NCBI GenBank assembly: GCA_028870995.1
Contig: JAGWOI010000008.1
Span: 3,468 to 67,467 of the forward strand
Length of the DNA: 64,000 nucleotides
Direction of reading: 5' to 3'
DNA from: Candidatus Omnitrophota bacterium
Lineage (GTDB): Bacteria > Omnitrophota > Gorgyraeia > Zapsychrales > Fredricksoniimonadaceae
In this document: positions 31,675-38,760 of the stretch, piece by piece
Layout: each line of letters starts with the position of its first letter
Numbering within the stretch: position 1 is the stretch's first letter
Position numbers and translations under genes: made by a program
Notes under the pieces: model-generated
Database searches by the model: none
Told to the model about the DNA's origin: nothing
The model's input: only the letters and a program-made list of their open reading frames with translations

Positions 31675-31920
31675 ATGCCTAAAGACAGCCAACAACTGAC
31701 GACCCTAAGTAATATGCCTGTGGGGCAAAAGGCCTTGATTGCCGCCTTTGCCGTTGATACCGATCAAGGGGAACATATTCAAAAGATGGGTTTTGTGCCA
31801 GGGGAAATATTGGAAGTGGTCCGGGCCCAAGCCGACCGTATTGAAGTCAAGATCGGTCAGTACTTTGTTTCTTTAAATAAAACTGAGGCCGATTGCATCA
31901 AGGTAAAGCCTTTCTTATAA
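31675..31920 (+). CDS. feoA: FeoA-domain protein
   Basis: At 81 aa, 'LSNMPVGQKALIAAF...GFVPGEILEVVR...IEVKIGQYFVSL' is an SH3-like FeoA fold signature. No feoB gene is adjacent. Confidence 0.7.
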   Translation: MPKDSQQLTTLSNMPVGQKALIAAFAVDTDQGEHIQKMGFVPGEILEVVRAQADRIEVKIGQYFVSLNKTEADCIKVKPFL

Positions 31921-31990: not shown

Positions 31991-32629
31991 ATGGCTATGG
32001 GTTCATCTTTGTCTATGATCGATGTGAGCAGGGTCGAAAGCGCCAAGCTGGAGAAGTCCCCTTACGAGTACATCGTGGTTTCAGATTTTATCCGGGGCGA
32101 ATGGAAGGACAAGCTGATCGCCAGCTACCCGCAACTTAAGGCCGCGGGCAGTTTTCCGTTGACGACTGTTTCCTGCAGTCCCGAGTTCAAGCAGCTGATC
32201 GATGAAATGAACTCCGAAGATTTCCGTCGTGCCATTGAATCCAAATTTTCCCTTGATCTTAAAGACAAACCGACAATGTTTACCGTCCGCGGCAAATGTC
32301 GGCTTAAGGACGGTCAGGTCCATACGGATTCGGAAAGCAAGATCATCACCGTCCTACTTTATATGAACCCTTCCTGGGAAAACCAGGGGGGGCGGCTGCG
32401 CCTTTTGAACAGCAATAACATCGACGATATCAAGACCGAAGTGCCGCCGGACGTAGGGACCCTGCTGGTATTCAAACGCTGCGATCATTCCTGGCACGGA
32501 CACCTGCCTTTTGAAGGTGTGCGCAAGGTGATCCAGATGAACTGGGTGACACACCAGAAATTCGTGGACCAGGAGCAAAAACGCCACCGCTGGTCCGCCC
32601 TCTTCAAAATATTCTCCCCGTCGTATTAA
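31991..32629 (+). CDS. 2-oxoglutarate/Fe(II)-dependent oxygenase superfamily protein
   Basis: The HxD...H facial triad candidates are 'VHTDSE' and 'HSWHGH', with 'RLRLLNSN' upstream. The protein is 212 aa. Confidence 0.6.
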   Translation: MAMGSSLSMIDVSRVESAKLEKSPYEYIVVSDFIRGEWKDKLIASYPQLKAAGSFPLTTVSCSPEFKQLIDEMNSEDFRRAIESKFSLDLKDKPTMFTVRGKCRLKDGQVHTDSESKIITVLLYMNPSWENQGGRLRLLNSNNIDDIKTEVPPDVGTLLVFKRCDHSWHGHLPFEGVRKVIQMNWVTHQKFVDQEQKRHRWSALFKIFSPSY

Positions 32630-32633
32630 AACC

Positions 32634-33587
32634 ATGGCCGCAACCGATCTGCCGACATTATCGTGCTGGGTCGCCAGTCAAGGCCTTATCGGCCTCCAGA
32701 ACCAGGCCGAAGGGCTTGCCCGGGCGCTGGGGTTTCCTTTCACCATAAAAGAGTTCAAAAAACCGCGCGGCTGGCGGCCTTGGCCGCTGCCCCCTGAAAA
32801 ATACGGTTTTCTGCCGCCCTGGCCCGATGTGCTCATCACCTGCGGGTGCCAGAGCGCCGGCCTTTCCGTGGCTGTGCGCCGGGCGAGTCAAGGCAAGACC
32901 TTCACGATCCATATCCAGGACCCGGCCATGGCGCCTAAGCATTTTGATGTGGTGGTGGCTCCCAGCCATGACAAGGTGCGGGGGGAAAATGTTTTTGTGA
33001 GCCAGGGATCGGTGCACCATGTGACCCTGGAGAAGCTTAAAGAGGCGGCCGATCATTTCAGGCCGTTGTTGGGCCGCCTGCCGCGGCCGCTCGTCAGCGT
33101 GCTGGTAGGCGGCTCCAATAGGCACCAGGACTTTTCCACCGTGATTGCCCGTGACTTGGCCGGCAAGCTCTTGGCGGCCGCAAAAGCCAGCGGCGGGGGG
33201 CTGGCGGTCTCGCCTTCGCGGCGGACGGGTGCCGCCAACGAGGCCCTCCTGCGCCAGGAACTACGGGCTGTGCCTTCCTATATATGGGACGGCAGCGGTG
33301 AGAATCCTTATTTTGGCCTTTTGGGCTTAGGGGACGCCATCGTGGTCACCAGCGATTCCGTTTCCATGATTTCCGAAGCCTGTTCCAGCGGCAAACCCGT
33401 CTATATATATGAATTGCCAAACGCCGGCAAAAGGCATAAAATTTTTTTGGAGAGTTTTATTCGACAGGGCCTGGTGAGACTCTTTAAGGGCAGTATTGAG
33501 CCCTGGGAGGCAACAGCGCTCAATGAAACCCAAAAGGCCGTTGATTTTATTCGCTTGCGACTCAAAGAAAGGTGGGGAAGGACATGA
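32634..33587 (+). CDS. ELM1/DUF1022-family protein (predicted GT-B-like fold, function unknown)
   Basis: The N-terminus 'LSCWVASQGLIGLQNQAEGLARALG' and the overall length and composition resemble bacterial 'mitochondrial fission ELM1' family proteins. Confidence 0.55.
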   Translation: MAATDLPTLSCWVASQGLIGLQNQAEGLARALGFPFTIKEFKKPRGWRPWPLPPEKYGFLPPWPDVLITCGCQSAGLSVAVRRASQGKTFTIHIQDPAMAPKHFDVVVAPSHDKVRGENVFVSQGSVHHVTLEKLKEAADHFRPLLGRLPRPLVSVLVGGSNRHQDFSTVIARDLAGKLLAAAKASGGGLAVSPSRRTGAANEALLRQELRAVPSYIWDGSGENPYFGLLGLGDAIVVTSDSVSMISEACSSGKPVYIYELPNAGKRHKIFLESFIRQGLVRLFKGSIEPWEATALNETQKAVDFIRLRLKERWGRT

Positions 33588-35533
33588 TAACACCGGTACT
33601 CACTCAGAAAAGATCTCTGGACATTAAAACGTTTAATAATACAGGCGGTTCTTCCGCGCTGTTTAAAGCGCTCGGTCATCCCTTGACCGCATCTAAGATG
33701 AATGGTCTTATCAGTTCCTTGTCCTCGTTGGGCAGGGTGGCGGTCTATGATCCTCTGGGACAGGCGGCAGAGTGGCAGGCCCTTTATGATATCTCTTCCG
33801 TTAAAATTGCCGCTGTTTTTGTCCAGAATGTGGCCGACCTCGACAAGCAGCTGTTGGGTAAGAATACACAGCCGGTGATGGATTTAGCAAAGGCCCAGGC
33901 CGATGCACTGGTGGTGACAGCTTTCGACGCGGCCCGCCTGGTCGCCCAAATCCAGCATTTACTGCCTCAAGGCCTTAAGATATTGTCCTTTGATGATGTC
34001 CGCCTTCCCGATGAATTTCTCACCAACACCCGTCATTACCTTGATCCTTTGAATTTCGCCACCAATTTTGTTTTCTTCAGGGAAGAGGCAGGCCACCACA
34101 CGCGGCTGGTCACGGCCAATTATTGGGCCGGATACAGCCAGAAGGAGGTGGGCCTCTGGTGCTGCCTTTTCGACAAGGACGGCAAGGCCTTGTCCCAGTG
34201 GTGGGAGAAACTTAAAAAAAGCGTTCATACCATCACGCTCGACAGCAAGGAAATCAAGGAGCGCCTGAAGCTGGGGTCATTTACCGGCAGTTTGTTTGTG
34301 CATTTTACCGGTGTCGCCGGCCATGATGTGGCCAAATATGCCTTGGATACGTACGGCGACGTTGAAACCGTGCTTTCCTGCACGCACGATGCCAATCCCT
34401 GGCCCGCGGATCTTTATGCCGGTCTGCCGGCGCCCAAGGAAGGCAGCCAGGTGTTGCTGTGGGTGCAAAACAGCCATCCCTGCCCGATTCCGGCCAACAG
34501 CATCGGCTTAAGTTTCATGGGTTCGGATGAGGTGGTTGTGTATGATAAACCGATCGGTGGTTTTGCTACCGTTGAGCTGGATACGGCAGAGTTTTTCCCG
34601 AAGGCCAGGTGGCCTCAGCAGTTTGAAGTTCATGCGGGCCGGTATTTTGTCCGCCCCCGGTACGAAGTGATCGATCAGGTCAAAGGCCGCTGTCTCATTG
34701 CGCATACCAACGTCGAGCGCACTGATTTGAAGGCCGATCCGGCCATTCCGGCCTTGGGCCGCGTCATGGGCAAAATTTACATCCTGCCCATGCCGGTATT
34801 GCCGGTCGACCGCTGGCAGACGATCGTGCTGCCGACACCGATGTCCACGGCGCAGAAGAATTTGCCGCTGGCCTTGTCGATCTATGACCGTCAGGGCAAG
34901 AAAGTGGCTTCTCATTTTTTGGGGGTATTGGATCGCGCCTCCATTAAGGATTTCAATATCAATGATTTGTTAAGCAAGCGTTCTCCAGAGGATTTTCCCG
35001 AAGGATTCGGTCATGTGGAATTGACCTATGATTTTTCGCAAGGCGGTCAGGCCGACGGCTGGCTGCATGGGCTGGTGCGCTACGAAGACACTCAAAGCGG
35101 TCATAACGCAGAAACCAGCTTCGGTTCCCATATTTTTAATACCGTACTGGTTTATAAAAATGAGCCGCAGTCTTACGCGGGCAGACCGCCGGGCTTGAGC
35201 ACCCGGCTTTTTTTGCGCCTGTGGCCGGGTGAGGAAGTCGATACCTTGTGCCATTTGATCTATCCGGCTTCAACGCCCTGGCATGCTCAGTCTATGACAG
35301 ACCTTATCCTGACCGATGCCGATGGTCGGGAGGTGCACAAGAAAACCGTGCGCATTCCCTGCAGCGGTTCCTTGTTCTGGCGCTATCATGAGATGTTCAG
35401 TCAAGAAGAGCGCCGGCGCGCGGGCAAGAATGCCTACATCATCATCCGTGACATGACCTGCCGCCTGTTCGGTTATCACGGGCTGATCAACGACGGCAAG
35501 GCCTTTTGTCTGGACCACATGTTCGGTTTTTAA
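33572..35533 (+). CDS. Large hypothetical cytoplasmic protein with three or four internal repeats
   Basis: It is 653 aa with no recognisable catalytic motif. Recurrent segments are 'CLFDKDGKALSQ', 'SIYDRQGKKVASH' and 'ILTDADGREVHKK', each preceded by aromatic-rich stretches. Confidence 0.5.
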   Translation: MGKDMITPVLTQKRSLDIKTFNNTGGSSALFKALGHPLTASKMNGLISSLSSLGRVAVYDPLGQAAEWQALYDISSVKIAAVFVQNVADLDKQLLGKNTQPVMDLAKAQADALVVTAFDAARLVAQIQHLLPQGLKILSFDDVRLPDEFLTNTRHYLDPLNFATNFVFFREEAGHHTRLVTANYWAGYSQKEVGLWCCLFDKDGKALSQWWEKLKKSVHTITLDSKEIKERLKLGSFTGSLFVHFTGVAGHDVAKYALDTYGDVETVLSCTHDANPWPADLYAGLPAPKEGSQVLLWVQNSHPCPIPANSIGLSFMGSDEVVVYDKPIGGFATVELDTAEFFPKARWPQQFEVHAGRYFVRPRYEVIDQVKGRCLIAHTNVERTDLKADPAIPALGRVMGKIYILPMPVLPVDRWQTIVLPTPMSTAQKNLPLALSIYDRQGKKVASHFLGVLDRASIKDFNINDLLSKRSPEDFPEGFGHVELTYDFSQGGQADGWLHGLVRYEDTQSGHNAETSFGSHIFNTVLVYKNEPQSYAGRPPGLSTRLFLRLWPGEEVDTLCHLIYPASTPWHAQSMTDLILTDADGREVHKKTVRIPCSGSLFWRYHEMFSQEERRRAGKNAYIIIRDMTCRLFGYHGLINDGKAFCLDHMFGF

Positions 35534-35538
35534 AATTT

Positions 35539-36447
35539 ATGGAAAAAAGGTCTCTGCATCCGCAGTTTGCCCATTTCCGCGCCCTTATCAATCGAGAAGG
35601 AAGATCGAATATCCACAGCTCCAGGGAAAGGCATAATCCGCTGTTGGACCTTTACCATTATCTTTTTTCTCTCTCCTGGCCCAAGTTCTTCCTCTGTATC
35701 GCCGCCGTTTATCTGTTGATCAACCTGTGTTTTGGAAGTTTCTATTTTTTCGATGGGGTGGATATCCTAAAGAAGGCATCAGGCCTCCAACGTTTCAGTC
35801 ATTGCTTTTTATTGAGCGTCGAAAATATGACGGCCGTCGATTACAGCAGGGTGGAGCGCGGCAGCGGCGGGGTGTACCTGTTGATGACGGTCCAGGCATT
35901 CCTTGGGCTCCTGACCCTGGCCGTGATCACCGGTCTTTTTTACGCGCGGTTTTCGAGGGCCACCGCCAGGGTCATTTTCAGCAATAAAATCACCATTGCT
36001 CCTTATAACGGCAGGACGTGCCTTTCTTTCAGGATCGCCAATGAACGTTTGAACCAGATTGCGGAAGCCCGGATGTCCCTGCACATGACCAGAAATGAGG
36101 TCAGCCGGGAAGGGGAACATACCCGCAAATTTTATGACCTTAACTTGGAGCGCAGTCATACGCCCTTGTTTTCGTTAAGCTGGACGGTGAGGCACTTTAT
36201 CGACGAATACAGCCCCCTGTTCGGCATGGATGAACAACAAATGAAGGAAGCCCAAATGGGCATCCTGGCGTCGTTGACCGGCACCGACGAGACTTTTTCC
36301 CAGCCCATCATGGCCCGCCATGCGTATTCCGTCGAAGACATTGTTTACAACCGGCGTTTTAAAGATATCATAATATGGCAGGATAAGAAGGTGCATATCA
36401 ATTTAAAAGGCATCCACGACCTGCACGAGGCGGACATGGGCCGCTAA
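35539..36447 (+). CDS. KirBac-like inward-rectifier-fold channel with a non-canonical selectivity filter
   Basis: 'LSVENMTAVDYSRV' aligns with the KirBac 'FSVETLATVGYGDM'. 'YLFSLSWPKFF' is a slide-helix/TM1 match. The cytoplasmic Ig-like domain is 'ARVIFSNKITIAPYNGRTCLSFRIANERLNQIAEARMSLHMTRNE'. Confidence 0.75.
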   Translation: MEKRSLHPQFAHFRALINREGRSNIHSSRERHNPLLDLYHYLFSLSWPKFFLCIAAVYLLINLCFGSFYFFDGVDILKKASGLQRFSHCFLLSVENMTAVDYSRVERGSGGVYLLMTVQAFLGLLTLAVITGLFYARFSRATARVIFSNKITIAPYNGRTCLSFRIANERLNQIAEARMSLHMTRNEVSREGEHTRKFYDLNLERSHTPLFSLSWTVRHFIDEYSPLFGMDEQQMKEAQMGILASLTGTDETFSQPIMARHAYSVEDIVYNRRFKDIIIWQDKKVHINLKGIHDLHEADMGR

Positions 36448-36453
36448 CGGGAT

Positions 36454-36969
36454 ATGATAAGGATATATTCAGGTTCGAGAGGTTTCGGGTTCCTTCTTTT
36501 TTTTATCCTGGGAATTTTCCTGCTTTTGCTGGTTTTCTTTTGGGGTATAACGGCCATCATGCAGCTGCTGCTGCCGTTATTGATCGTGGTCTCTTACCTG
36601 ACGATCATTGTTTTTGTCATGGGGTTCCTTCCGGCCACCTCCATTAAGCGTTTGCGCCCTGCCCTCAGCAGGTATTCACTGTTGATGTCCTATTGCCTGG
36701 GTACGGCTGCCTGGATATTGGCTTTTCTGTTTGTCATCCGCGCTTTCGGGTTCCTCGGCGTGGTGTTTGCCTTTTTCTTCAAATACCTGGGGTTTATCGC
36801 GCTCGCCGGCGCGCTGGCCAAGGGGGCCTGGCATGTGGCTGCCCATTTGGCCTTATGGTCCATCTTCGCCTATGTCACGAAATTCTATAGCCAATGGCTG
36901 TTGACGTTAAAGTCCTACGGCCGCCAAAGGAGCGGTAATATCATTGACATACAGGCCAGGGAGGTTTAG
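36454..36969 (+). CDS. Small hypothetical 4-TM membrane protein
   Basis: It is 171 aa with four long hydrophobic segments and lies directly downstream of the channel gene. Confidence 0.5.
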   Translation: MIRIYSGSRGFGFLLFFILGIFLLLLVFFWGITAIMQLLLPLLIVVSYLTIIVFVMGFLPATSIKRLRPALSRYSLLMSYCLGTAAWILAFLFVIRAFGFLGVVFAFFFKYLGFIALAGALAKGAWHVAAHLALWSIFAYVTKFYSQWLLTLKSYGRQRSGNIIDIQAREV

Positions 36970-36980
36970 AGTAATTTTTT

Positions 36981-37667
36981 ATGGACTATACTGCATACAT
37001 CCATTGCCAAGTCAAGAATTTGAAAAATGGCCTGGAGAAAAGCCGGATCCAGCCTTATGTGACCATTTCACGCCAAACAGGCGCCTGGGGGCTGACCATT
37101 GCCAAAAAACTTTGCGAATCCTTAAAGAAGGTCCCCCAGTTCAAAAACTGTCCATGGGCCATTTTTGATAAAGAGATCCTTGATAAGGTGATACATGAGC
37201 TAAATTTGCCGGAAACGGTTCTTCCTTATCTTTCGGAATCGACCATTACCGAGATCGAGGATCTGATGGAGGAGCTCTTCGGACTGCATCCTTCCCGGTA
37301 CCTGCTGGTCCAGGAGACCAGCAAGACCATCCTGCATTTGGCCCAGCTCGGCCATGCCATCATTGTGGGCAGGGGCTCGGGCATCATCACTGCCAAAATC
37401 CCCGGCGGTGTTCATGTGCGGTTGATAGCCCCCTTGGAAAAACGCATTGAGCATATGCAGGAGTATTTAAAGGTCAGCCGCGAGGAGGCCAGAAGGTTTA
37501 TCCTTGAAAAAGACGCCAACCGGAAGAATTACGCTAAAAAGTATTTCGATAAGGATAATAGCGATCCTTTGTTGTATGACCTGGTCATCAATGTGGATGC
37601 CGTGGGGATCCATGAGACGGTGAAGATCATTGAAGATTTGTTACTGATCAAGAATAAGCTATGTTAA
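36981..37667 (+). CDS. Cytidylate kinase-like family protein (Cytidylate_kin2-type P-loop NTPase)
   Basis: 'YVTISRQTGAWGLTIAKKLCESL' is the variant P-loop of this family. The C-terminus is 'YDLVINVDAVGIHETVKIIEDL'. Confidence 0.65.
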   Translation: MDYTAYIHCQVKNLKNGLEKSRIQPYVTISRQTGAWGLTIAKKLCESLKKVPQFKNCPWAIFDKEILDKVIHELNLPETVLPYLSESTITEIEDLMEELFGLHPSRYLLVQETSKTILHLAQLGHAIIVGRGSGIITAKIPGGVHVRLIAPLEKRIEHMQEYLKVSREEARRFILEKDANRKNYAKKYFDKDNSDPLLYDLVINVDAVGIHETVKIIEDLLLIKNKLC

Positions 37668-38107
37668 AGCGGCTGCTGACAGGGGCCATGATTTTCACTT
37701 TGTGGAGCGGGTATCTTCAAGCCCAGGAGGTCCCGTCCCAGAAAAAGACCTTGGCCGACGGCTGTACCTATGAGGGTCAATTCAAGGGCGACGTCCCCGG
37801 TGGCCAAGGGGCCGTGACCTGTCCCAACGGGGTGCAATACACCGGAGCATTCAAGGACGGGCTTTATGACGGCCCAGGGACCCTGGTTTATGCCGACAGC
37901 AGCAAATACGAGGGGCATTTTAAAGAGGGGCTTCTGGACGGCCACGGGGATTTGACTTGGGCCGACGGGGGGTCTTATAAGGGGAATTTCAGCGCAGGTC
38001 AGATCAACGGCGAGGGGGTTTTGACCGGCGCAGACGGCAGCCGTCACGAAGGCTACTTTAAAAACGGGGATTTTGTGGGTACGGAAGAGCCGGCACAGGA
38101 CAATTAA
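37661..38107 (+). CDS. Secreted MORN-repeat protein
   Basis: It has a signal peptide followed by five tandem 'YxGxFKxGxxxGxG' MORN motifs. Confidence 0.75.
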   Translation: MLKRLLTGAMIFTLWSGYLQAQEVPSQKKTLADGCTYEGQFKGDVPGGQGAVTCPNGVQYTGAFKDGLYDGPGTLVYADSSKYEGHFKEGLLDGHGDLTWADGGSYKGNFSAGQINGEGVLTGADGSRHEGYFKNGDFVGTEEPAQDN

Positions 38108-38127
38108 TTGCTTTAGAAAGGATAAAT

Positions 38128-38760
38128 ATGTCAGGTCATGTAAAGAAGGTTTTGGCGGCAGGCTTGTTGCTGTTGTTGTCGCTGCCGGGATTATCTTATG
38201 CCGACTGGTCCGTGGGGATCGGCGTAGGCAACCCTGATTATCACCGCGATCATGACAGGGACCGCTGGCATGAATGGCACGAGCATCCCCGCTGGGGTTA
38301 TCGGGAGCGTTATTTGCCGCCGGATTGCTACACCATCTGGTCTGACGGCATCAGGTATCATTATTGCGGAGGCGTGTATTACACCTATGCCAGCGGGGAT
38401 TATATGCTGGTCAACCCTCCGGCAGGAGCTTTTGTCAACGCCATTCCGCCGGATTTTCACCCTGTGGTCATTAACGGGATTACCTATTATACCGATCAGG
38501 GCATTTATTATGTTTTAACCGCCCGTGGTTATCAAGTGGTCGCCCCGCCTGTAGTGGAACAGCCGCAGGTGCTGACGCCGCCTCCGGCGCCGCCCACCAG
38601 CTATGGCCAGGACAGTTTCACCGTGAATGTGCCCAACAACAGCGGGGGCTATACGACGGTGGTCGTTAAAAGATCGGGTAAGGGCTATGTGGGGCCGCAA
38701 GGGGAGTATTACGCGGAATTTCCCAAGGTTTCCGAGCTTAAAGCCATGTACGTGAAGTGA
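38128..38760 (+). CDS. Secreted His/Asp/Tyr-rich hypothetical protein (family A, long form)
   Basis: The signal peptide ends 'LSYADW'. A His-rich stretch 'HRDHDRDRWHEWHEHPRWGY' follows, then 'GGVYYTYASGDYMLVNPPAGA'. It is paralogous to 45670..46005. Confidence 0.6.
   Translation: MSGHVKKVLAAGLLLLLSLPGLSYADWSVGIGVGNPDYHRDHDRDRWHEWHEHPRWGYRERYLPPDCYTIWSDGIRYHYCGGVYYTYASGDYMLVNPPAGAFVNAIPPDFHPVVINGITYYTDQGIYYVLTARGYQVVAPPVVEQPQVLTPPPAPPTSYGQDSFTVNVPNNSGGYTTVVVKRSGKGYVGPQGEYYAEFPKVSELKAMYVK

Follow-up and report, generated by a model that had tools for sequence, protein, structure and literature searches.

An Omnitrophota clade of Kir-fold proteins with an acidic residue at the first glycine of the K+ selectivity filter

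A 64,000-nucleotide stretch of a Candidatus Omnitrophota genome (assembly GCA_028870995.1, contig JAGWOI010000008.1, positions 3,468 to 67,467; hereafter the window) carries a gene for a protein of the inward-rectifier (Kir/KirBac) fold in which the K+ selectivity filter is replaced by the segment Ala-Val-Asp-Tyr-Ser. The replacement is shared by a whole clade of related proteins and is conserved under purifying selection, together with a coordinated set of changes in the residues behind the filter. By analogy with characterised channels that have lost the same signature, the protein is probably a gated cation channel that no longer selects for K+, and in the subclade to which it belongs it appears to work with a small membrane protein, here termed tm4, encoded immediately downstream.

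Judged by its database matches, the protein is a structural member of the Kir/KirBac superfamily that fails the superfamily's K+ signature, TxG[YF]G. A phmmer search against all PDB sequences returned KirBac3.1 as the best match (E 4.4e-57), with query residues 15-294 aligned to chain residues 13-292 at 37% identity over ~280 residues and with two single-residue indels only, both well outside the filter; other matches were KirBac1.1 (E 5.5e-50) and the eukaryotic Kir2.2, Kir3.2 and Kir6.2 (1e-22 to 1e-18). Pfam recognized the cytoplasmic domain (IRK_C, PF17655, residues 145-295) with an E-value of 2.7e-24 and 86.2 bits against a cut-off of 22.5, and scored the IRK transmembrane domain (PF01007, residues 35-140) at 22.3 bits, just under the cut-off of 22.7, while an NCBIfam search with the protein gave no match. 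The alignments with KirBac1.1 and KirBac3.1 and the IRK_C match bear out the initial annotation of this DNA, which had described a Kir architecture running from the slide helix to the cytoplasmic domain. The ATG at 35539 is backed as the start codon by the N-termini of homologues and by a deposited 302-aa protein from a Candidatus Omnitrophica metagenome-assembled genome (P0001), to which the Kir-like protein is matched at 100% identity and coverage; this start leaves a 5-nt gap to an upstream open reading frame (ORF) of 653 aa. The list of ORFs also offers a TTG at 35506, which would add 11 residues, and the 28-nt overlap with the 653-aa ORF mentioned in the initial annotation is arithmetically correct for that less well supported start. 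No second Kir homologue and no other K+-type pore loop (P-loop) was found within the 64-kb window, and a scan for promoters and terminators around the gene yielded terminator-like sites at the chance-expected level only.

In K+ channels the selectivity filter is formed by the backbone carbonyls of the TxGYG motif, whose first glycine is intolerant to substitution. The window segment 35815..35850, which translates to SVENMTAVDYSR, covers the end of the pore helix and the altered filter. The segment FFFSVQTMATIGYGKL pairs with CFLLSVENMTAVDYSRV in the KirBac3.1 alignment from the PDB search, and over 35815..35850 the KirBac3.1 sequence SVQTMATIGYGKL is matched to SVENMTAVDYSRV. Because the region from the pore helix to TM2 is aligned without gaps, the register is fixed: TIGYG of KirBac3.1 corresponds to A99-V100-D101-Y102-S103, with Asp101 at the first glycine of GYG and T98 as the last residue of the pore helix, outside the filter. 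The reference sequences of KirBac3.1 and KirBac1.1 were entered by hand, and the register obtained with them agrees with the independent HMMER/PDB alignment. In the window protein the Val/Ile and Tyr of the filter are kept, and the filter Thr and both glycines are replaced. A GYG-like motif is not obtained in any other register, and GYG occurs nowhere else in the protein; the proposal that the signature has been lost therefore withstood the check that could have overturned it. Of that proposal, the replacement of the signature and the absence of both glycines from this protein stand, and its pairing of T-A-V-D-Y-S with T-V-G-Y-G-D is one residue off. Its emphasis on the loss of both glycines is likewise right in that a canonical four-site K+ filter is impossible here, and needs correction in that the second glycine is kept in about one third of the clade. 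From the alignments, the change that defines the clade is that of the first Gly to Asp, or to Glu in a few proteins, together with that of Thr to Ala/Ser.

The altered filter recurs across a large set of homologues. A search of 5.8 billion proteins returned 960 matches at E <= 1e-10, and among the best 120 of these all proteins at 57-75% identity show, in register with the filter, the pattern [A/S/T]-[V/I]-[D/E]-[Y/F]-x. When 245 sequences were aligned jointly, 78 were Asp-type and 151 canonical, 14 had lost four residues of the filter by deletion, and 2 fell outside these groups; the pattern is present in every one of the 78 clade members. The gene loci compared included 16 from Omnitrophota (contigs of a one-genome-per-species collection), 80 metagenomic loci and several retrieved by exact protein look-up. 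Asp101 is encoded in 54 of 54 distinct loci, by GAT in 46 and GAC in 8; Arg/Lys104 is invariant in these loci and is written with seven codons, and Ser93 with two. Since Asp101 and Arg/Lys104 are invariant while their codons vary, purifying selection and not drift accounts for the motif, and the Asp-type filter is a conserved variant under clade-wide purifying selection, far beyond chance or error. The survey for the same filter that had been proposed in the initial annotation thus recovered it in 78 protein clusters and 54 distinct loci, and the prospect raised there of a degenerate pseudogene is ruled out by the intact ORF, the conserved motif and the synonymous codon variation. All taxonomically labelled members are Omnitrophota metagenome-assembled genomes (MAGs), some of which were deposited as 'uncultured Planctomycetales'. 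Clade proteins also bear the database name 'ATP-sensitive inward rectifier potassium channel 10', a label that constitutes a systematic mis-annotation and is not a guide to function.

Filter loss is rare in the KirBac superfamily, as far as could be gauged by searching 1.84 billion 50%-identity representatives exhaustively with HMMER, a set in which the Asp clade collapses to one representative. The motif [TS]xG[YF]G is kept by 147 of the 148 other informative top matches; the sole exception among these 148 representatives nearest the query is a 297-aa protein (P0223) in which 'AQGYR' replaces TIGYG. In a neighbour-joining tree (Kimura-corrected distances, filter columns masked, no bootstrap, hence a branching order that is moderately trustworthy) the Asp clade is monophyletic (78/78). 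Closest to it lie two canonical TIGYG proteins and the clade with the filter deletion, then further canonical proteins, and its nearest canonical TIGYG relatives are P0085, P0086 and P0097. The Asp filter thus derives from a canonical ancestor, and apparently did so independently of the filter deletion. The deletion itself marks a second Omnitrophota Kir clade (P0089-P0096 and P0098-P0103; loci L020-L022, L092 and L094-L098), ~50% identical to the window protein, in which T-I-G-Y is removed outright ('SVQLLN----GPFTP'). This clade, too, is monophyletic (14/14); it clusters with two canonical TIGYG proteins, lacks tm4 and seems to be a separate case of K+ filter loss within the phylum. Among the homologues there are also oversized Kir-domain proteins (P0148 with 956 aa, P0167 with 530 aa, P0187 with 805 aa, and P0193, P0196, P0216, P0225, P0228, P0252 and P0258 with ~690-715 aa), some with two or three Kir-like stretches per chain and others with an N-terminal extension of ~430 aa.

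A position-by-position comparison of the 78 Asp-type proteins with the 151 canonical KirBacs shows that the residues behind the filter have changed in a coordinated way. The substitutions that set the clade apart are concentrated in the pore helix, in the filter and at the top of TM2 (L92, E95, D101, R104, M116 and Q119), with Y135 as a further position. In the pore helix, the Phe present in 97% of canonical proteins has become Leu92, and a Gln has become Glu95. In the filter columns the changes are Thr to Ala/Ser99, Gly to Asp/Glu101 and Gly to Ser/Gly/Asn103; Arg104 follows in 92-94% of the clade, and the otherwise invariant Pro three residues further on is lost. At the top of TM2, Val is replaced by Met116, and the Glu of 94% of canonical proteins by Gln119, which is found in 100% of the clade. 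The parts of the scaffold associated with gating have been kept: the TM2 hinge residues Gly123 and Gly132 and the aromatic residue at the bundle crossing (Tyr/Phe135) are each present in 78/78, and the RF-x-R motif at the membrane interface is invariant.

Six nucleotides downstream of the Kir-like gene lies tm4, an orphan membrane protein with no match in Pfam or NCBIfam and only 14 detectable homologues, all labelled hypothetical. Its conserved acidic C-terminal tail (IIDVDAxEV) is disordered in an AlphaFold2 model that is otherwise all-helical (predicted local distance difference test, pLDDT, 78), and for which a Foldseek comparison with the PDB gave no fold match (best E 1.2, to designed helical repeats). 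Within the Asp clade a close subclade (A, at least 66.7% identity to the window protein) can be told from a distant one (B, 57-64% identity). Of 49 informative subclade-A loci, some of which are one and the same contig recovered from two collections, 46 have a homologue of tm4 (42-71% identity) directly next to the Kir-like gene. In 44 of these it follows the Kir-like gene in the same orientation, and a 4-nt ATGA overlap between the two is frequent. The other two (L104 and L107) are contigs from a single sample in which the Kir-like gene is inverted relative to tm4-MORN-DUF6515, an arrangement of divergent genes that could reflect a local inversion or an assembly problem. Insertions and replacements flank the Kir-tm4 pair on both sides and never fall between the two genes. 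The same order emerged when the comparison started from a partner protein (P0275): in its locus (L129) a FeoA gene is followed after 4 nt by the Kir-like gene, which overlaps the partner by 4 nt, and CrcB follows after another 4 nt. Even with a profile hidden Markov model at E <= 1, tm4 was absent from all loci of subclade B, whose motif is SVETLTAIDYGRIQP, and from the filter-deletion and canonical Kir loci. The small membrane protein that had been singled out as a functional neighbour is thus a conserved partner in the close subclade, where we infer that it serves as an accessory subunit of the channel and physically interacts with the Kir-like protein.

Because the gating residues are kept and the P-loop is strongly conserved, a gated channel without K+ selectivity is the best supported of the functional readings, and the option of a non-selective cation channel raised in the initial annotation is accordingly the one retained, on grounds of analogy. 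In mechanistic terms, the Kir-fold subunits would assemble as a tetramer, like their relatives, with gating at the TM2 bundle crossing under the control of the cytoplasmic domain. Asp101 would line the pore, its four carboxylates forming a ring at the position of the S1/S2 K+ sites. The channel would still conduct, no longer telling K+ from Na+, and divalent cations could bind to the resulting site of high field strength, block it or permeate through it. Within the close subclade, the window protein included, the channel would work with its dedicated tm4. Mutations at the same glycine in eukaryotic Kir channels lend weight to a loss of selectivity: Kir3.2 weaver (TIG156YG to S) admits Na+ (PMC12658365), and in Kir3.4 both G151R and G151E abolish selectivity for K+ and allow Na+ conduction, with the larger Na+-dependent toxicity in G151E (PMC3882136; PMC13258295). 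In addition, the KirBac homologues NirBac1.1 and NirBac1.2, which have non-canonical P-loops, are tetrameric and mediate a non-selective flux of monovalent cations (PMC4607889). That the Omnitrophota protein is a gated, tetrameric cation channel which conducts without K+ selectivity is therefore considered probable, if by no great measure.

Several points weigh against this reading. The Kir3.4 G151E mutation is pathogenic and destabilising, which makes it an imperfect analogy to an evolved filter, and Asp101 might play a purely structural part, paired with Arg104 or Glu95. TbIRK of Trypanosoma brucei, which lacks TxGYG, stays moderately K+-selective (PMC5429665). The Kir-tm4 adjacency sits in a broadly syntenic region of related genomes, so that part of its conservation reflects shared ancestry, and tm4 is missing from three close loci and from the whole 57-64% subclade, from which it follows that the channel has no strict need of it. 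Nor does precedent imply a role for divalent cations, since NirBac1.2 does not pass Ca2+ (PMC4607889). A more far-reaching proposal, in which these proteins constitute a hitherto unrecognised class of prokaryotic P-loop channels that either select for divalent cations (Ca2+, Mg2+ or Fe2+/Mn2+) or are gated by them, built on a K+-channel chassis and complexed with tm4 and possibly with a FeoA-type SH3-like protein, is thought rather unlikely.

Other explanations are less favoured. Were the remodelled P-loop to plug the pore, the protein would be a non-conducting scaffold, a membrane-anchored sensor or regulator of, e.g. tm4 or another transporter, much as the initial annotation had allowed. The destroyed canonical filter, the sub-threshold Pfam score of the transmembrane domain and the tightly linked orphan membrane partner, which would suit a regulatory pair, all fit such a role. 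A dead pore is disfavoured, however, by the retention of the pore-gating residues: none of Gly123, Gly132, Tyr135 or the TM2 face varies among the 78 sequences, and the P-loop with its charged ring is among the most conserved segments. Moreover, the distant subclade keeps the same filter without tm4, and characterised filter-less KirBac homologues do conduct (PMC4607889); a non-conducting scaffold is on this evidence a doubtful proposition. A channel that still prefers K+ through an unconventional filter would find its model in TbIRK, whose filter is GGYVG and whose PK/PNa is ~7-8 in the absence of TxGYG (PMC5429665), and could draw on the Val/Ile and Tyr/Phe that the clade retains in its filter and on the second glycine of about a third of its members. 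TbIRK keeps its glycines, however, and mutating them lowers selectivity (PMC5429665). In the Asp clade, by contrast, the first glycine is replaced by a charged L-amino acid at a position where Ser, Arg or Glu abolish K+ selectivity in Kir3.2 and Kir3.4, and the S4-forming Thr is lost too. Studies of KcsA with D-Ala at G77 are also said to show that the first-glycine position needs a left-handed backbone conformation, which again counts against K+ preference, and a K+-preferring channel is judged improbable.

Eukaryotic Kir subunits heteromerise, and the Omnitrophota protein might by the same token be an obligate heteromeric or modulatory subunit that alters the selectivity or gating of a canonical Kir encoded elsewhere; Omnitrophota do encode canonical (L019) and filter-deleted (L020-L022) homologues. 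Yet each of the 16 matching Omnitrophota assemblies in the one-genome-per-species collection has a single Kir locus of one type, in a scan that used two peptide patterns only and covered incomplete MAGs, and no second Kir gene occurs in the window or in any compared locus. Obligate co-assembly is consequently given a slim chance, slightly below that of K+ preference. A decaying gene or a sequencing or assembly artefact, for which the unusual motif is the sole argument, can be set aside as having next to no probability, given an intact ORF, an identical deposited protein, and the occurrence of the same motif, with synonymous codon variation, in 78 clusters and 54 distinct loci from independent samples.

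The features of the gene and of its surroundings are collected in Table 1.

Table 1. Features of the Kir-like locus, in window coordinates
Feature	Position	Strand	Basis or remark
FeoA-domain gene, orphan (PF04023, E 2.8e-13)	31675..31920	+	upstream of the cassette in the window
2OG-Fe(II) oxygenase gene (PF13640)	31991..32629		cassette gene 1
Elm1-like transferase gene (PF06258)	32634..33587		cassette gene 2
653-aa ORF	33572..35533		cassette gene 3; no Pfam domain
Kir/KirBac-fold gene, 302 aa	35539..36447	+	ATG start; ORF list, phmmer against PDB
Transmembrane pore module, residues 35-140 (slide helix, TM1, pore helix, P-loop, TM2)	35641..35958	+	Pfam IRK; comparison with 151 canonical KirBacs
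Pore-helix end and altered filter segment, S93-V-E-N-M-T-A-V-D-Y-S-R104	35815..35850	+	translation; HMMER register against KirBac3.1
Filter equivalent, A99-V100-D101-Y102-S103	35833..35847	+	Asp101 codon 35839..35841
Kir-type cytoplasmic Ig-like domain, residues 145-295	35971..36423	+	Pfam IRK_C PF17655
tm4, 171-aa orphan membrane protein, 4-5 predicted helices	36454..36969	+	6-nt spacer after the Kir-like gene

The 653-aa protein encoded upstream had also been put forward as part of a functional module with the channel, and here the comparison of gene neighbourhoods across related loci does not bear the idea out. The 5-nt gap that separates the two genes is uninformative, because the genes from 31991 to 38760 are all tightly packed, with gaps of -16 to +20 nt. 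The 653-aa family is widespread and strongly conserved (4869 matches), with 56-60% identity between Omnitrophota and alphaproteobacterial members. In Alphaproteobacteria the homologue directly follows the Elm1-like transferase and the 2OG-Fe(II) oxygenase, with no Kir gene nearby. The cassette stands upstream of the Kir gene in ~40% of the Kir loci and is absent from the others, where the neighbour abutting the Kir gene is FeoA-like, encodes a GT2 transferase or is of another kind. As the family is widespread, belongs to a separate cassette and is missing from most related loci, the module was rejected; the cross-phylum identity points to a possible horizontal transfer. The conserved cassette, represented by the window and loci L045-L048, includes a Pfam-less protein of ~636 aa. 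An AlphaFold2 model of the 653-aa protein (pLDDT 81; predicted template modelling score, pTM, 0.84) contains a Rossmann-like N-terminal domain (match 3wgh) and several beta-sandwich domains; the Foldseek matches were otherwise generic multi-beta-sandwich ones (TM-score ~0.1), from which no function could be assigned. NCBIfam searches with this protein and with the MORN and DUF6515 proteins further downstream gave no matches.

The relatives of the locus share a syntenic order: GalT-like, FeoA, [cassette], Kir, partner, [variable], MORN, DUF6515, MarR and RND membrane-fusion protein. About ten distinct lineages (L003, L009, L013, L050, L056, L059, L067, L075 and L129-L132) carry a FeoA gene 4-50 nt upstream of the Kir-like gene. 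In the window and L014, FeoA precedes the inserted cassette rather than the Kir-like gene itself; FeoB did not turn up in any of the compared loci. In many subclade-A loci (L001, L003, L129) genes for a CrcB fluoride channel and a DUF190 protein come after the Kir-tm4 pair. In the window, the pair is followed between 36981 and 38760 by a cytidylate-kinase-like gene (PF13189), then genes for a MORN-repeat protein (PF02493) and a DUF6515 protein, and beyond the last of these by MarR and then an RND membrane-fusion protein. In one Asp-type locus of subclade B (L133), genes for a CBS-domain protein and an MscL mechanosensitive channel stand directly upstream of the Kir gene.

Few sequences in biology are as conserved as the filters of K+ channels, and a large and ancient clade that has given its filter up represents a natural experiment on how a K+ filter evolves into something else. 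No paper was found in the literature searched that links Omnitrophota with inward rectifiers or that describes an Asp-type KirBac filter. The closest structural reference points are KirBac3.1 and KirBac1.1 (PDB 1XL4 and 1P7B, among others), with which the Omnitrophota protein shares the whole architecture, the hinge glycines, the aromatic bundle crossing and the Ig-like domain. It differs from them in having AVDYS where they have TIGYG/TVGYG, in the lost post-filter Pro, in the exchange of the TM2-top Glu for Gln and of the pore-helix Gln for Glu, and in a locus with a dedicated gene for a small membrane partner; tm4 is a candidate accessory subunit for a prokaryotic Kir-fold channel.

In functional concept the protein is, by analogy, closest to NirBac1.1, NirBac1.2 and NirBac2.1, published in 2015, which lowers the surprise; these too have the KirBac architecture and depart from the K+ signature only in the P-loop/filter (Zubcevic et al. 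2015, Sci Rep 5:15305; PMC4607889). The NirBacs, compared here by their published description, come from Anaeromyxobacter and Gemmatimonas, whereas the present proteins come from Omnitrophota; in NirBac1.x the whole loop is unrelated, and NirBac2.1 has TTGTD, whereas the Omnitrophota proteins keep the pore helix and the loop length and carry an acidic residue at the first-glycine position. Three or four isolated genes also stand against a large clade of 78 clusters with a partner gene, which complements the few NirBac genes. Since the Asp clade is monophyletic and its nearest relatives are canonical TIGYG proteins, its filter change most likely had an origin independent of the NirBac filters. 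The likeness to Kir3.4 (KCNJ5) G151E/G151R and to Kir3.2 weaver G156S is one of position, the same first glycine of GYG being replaced, in G151E by a carboxylate. Those are single pathogenic mutations in a canonical filter, whereas the present change is ancient, fixed under purifying selection and accompanied by compensating changes in the scaffold; the Omnitrophota proteins would be evolved, stable counterparts of human KCNJ5 G151E and mouse weaver, and may help structural work on the loss of selectivity. TbIRK resembles them as a Kir-related working channel without TxGYG and differs in its GGYVG filter, in keeping glycines and moderate K+ selectivity, in its eukaryotic host and in being very distant in sequence (PMC5429665). 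With acidic-ring P-loop channels the resemblance of the Asp-type Kir proteins is mechanistic only. In CNG channels (TIGET), NaK (TVGDG), TRPV5/6 (TIID) and CavAb/NavAb, which share the tetrameric pore-helix/P-loop architecture, four carboxylates at or near the filter make up a cation site that determines whether divalent cations bind, block or permeate and that does away with K+ selectivity; in CNG channels and NaK it is the Tyr, not the first glycine, that is exchanged for the acidic residue, and their homology to Kir extends to the generic pore module only.

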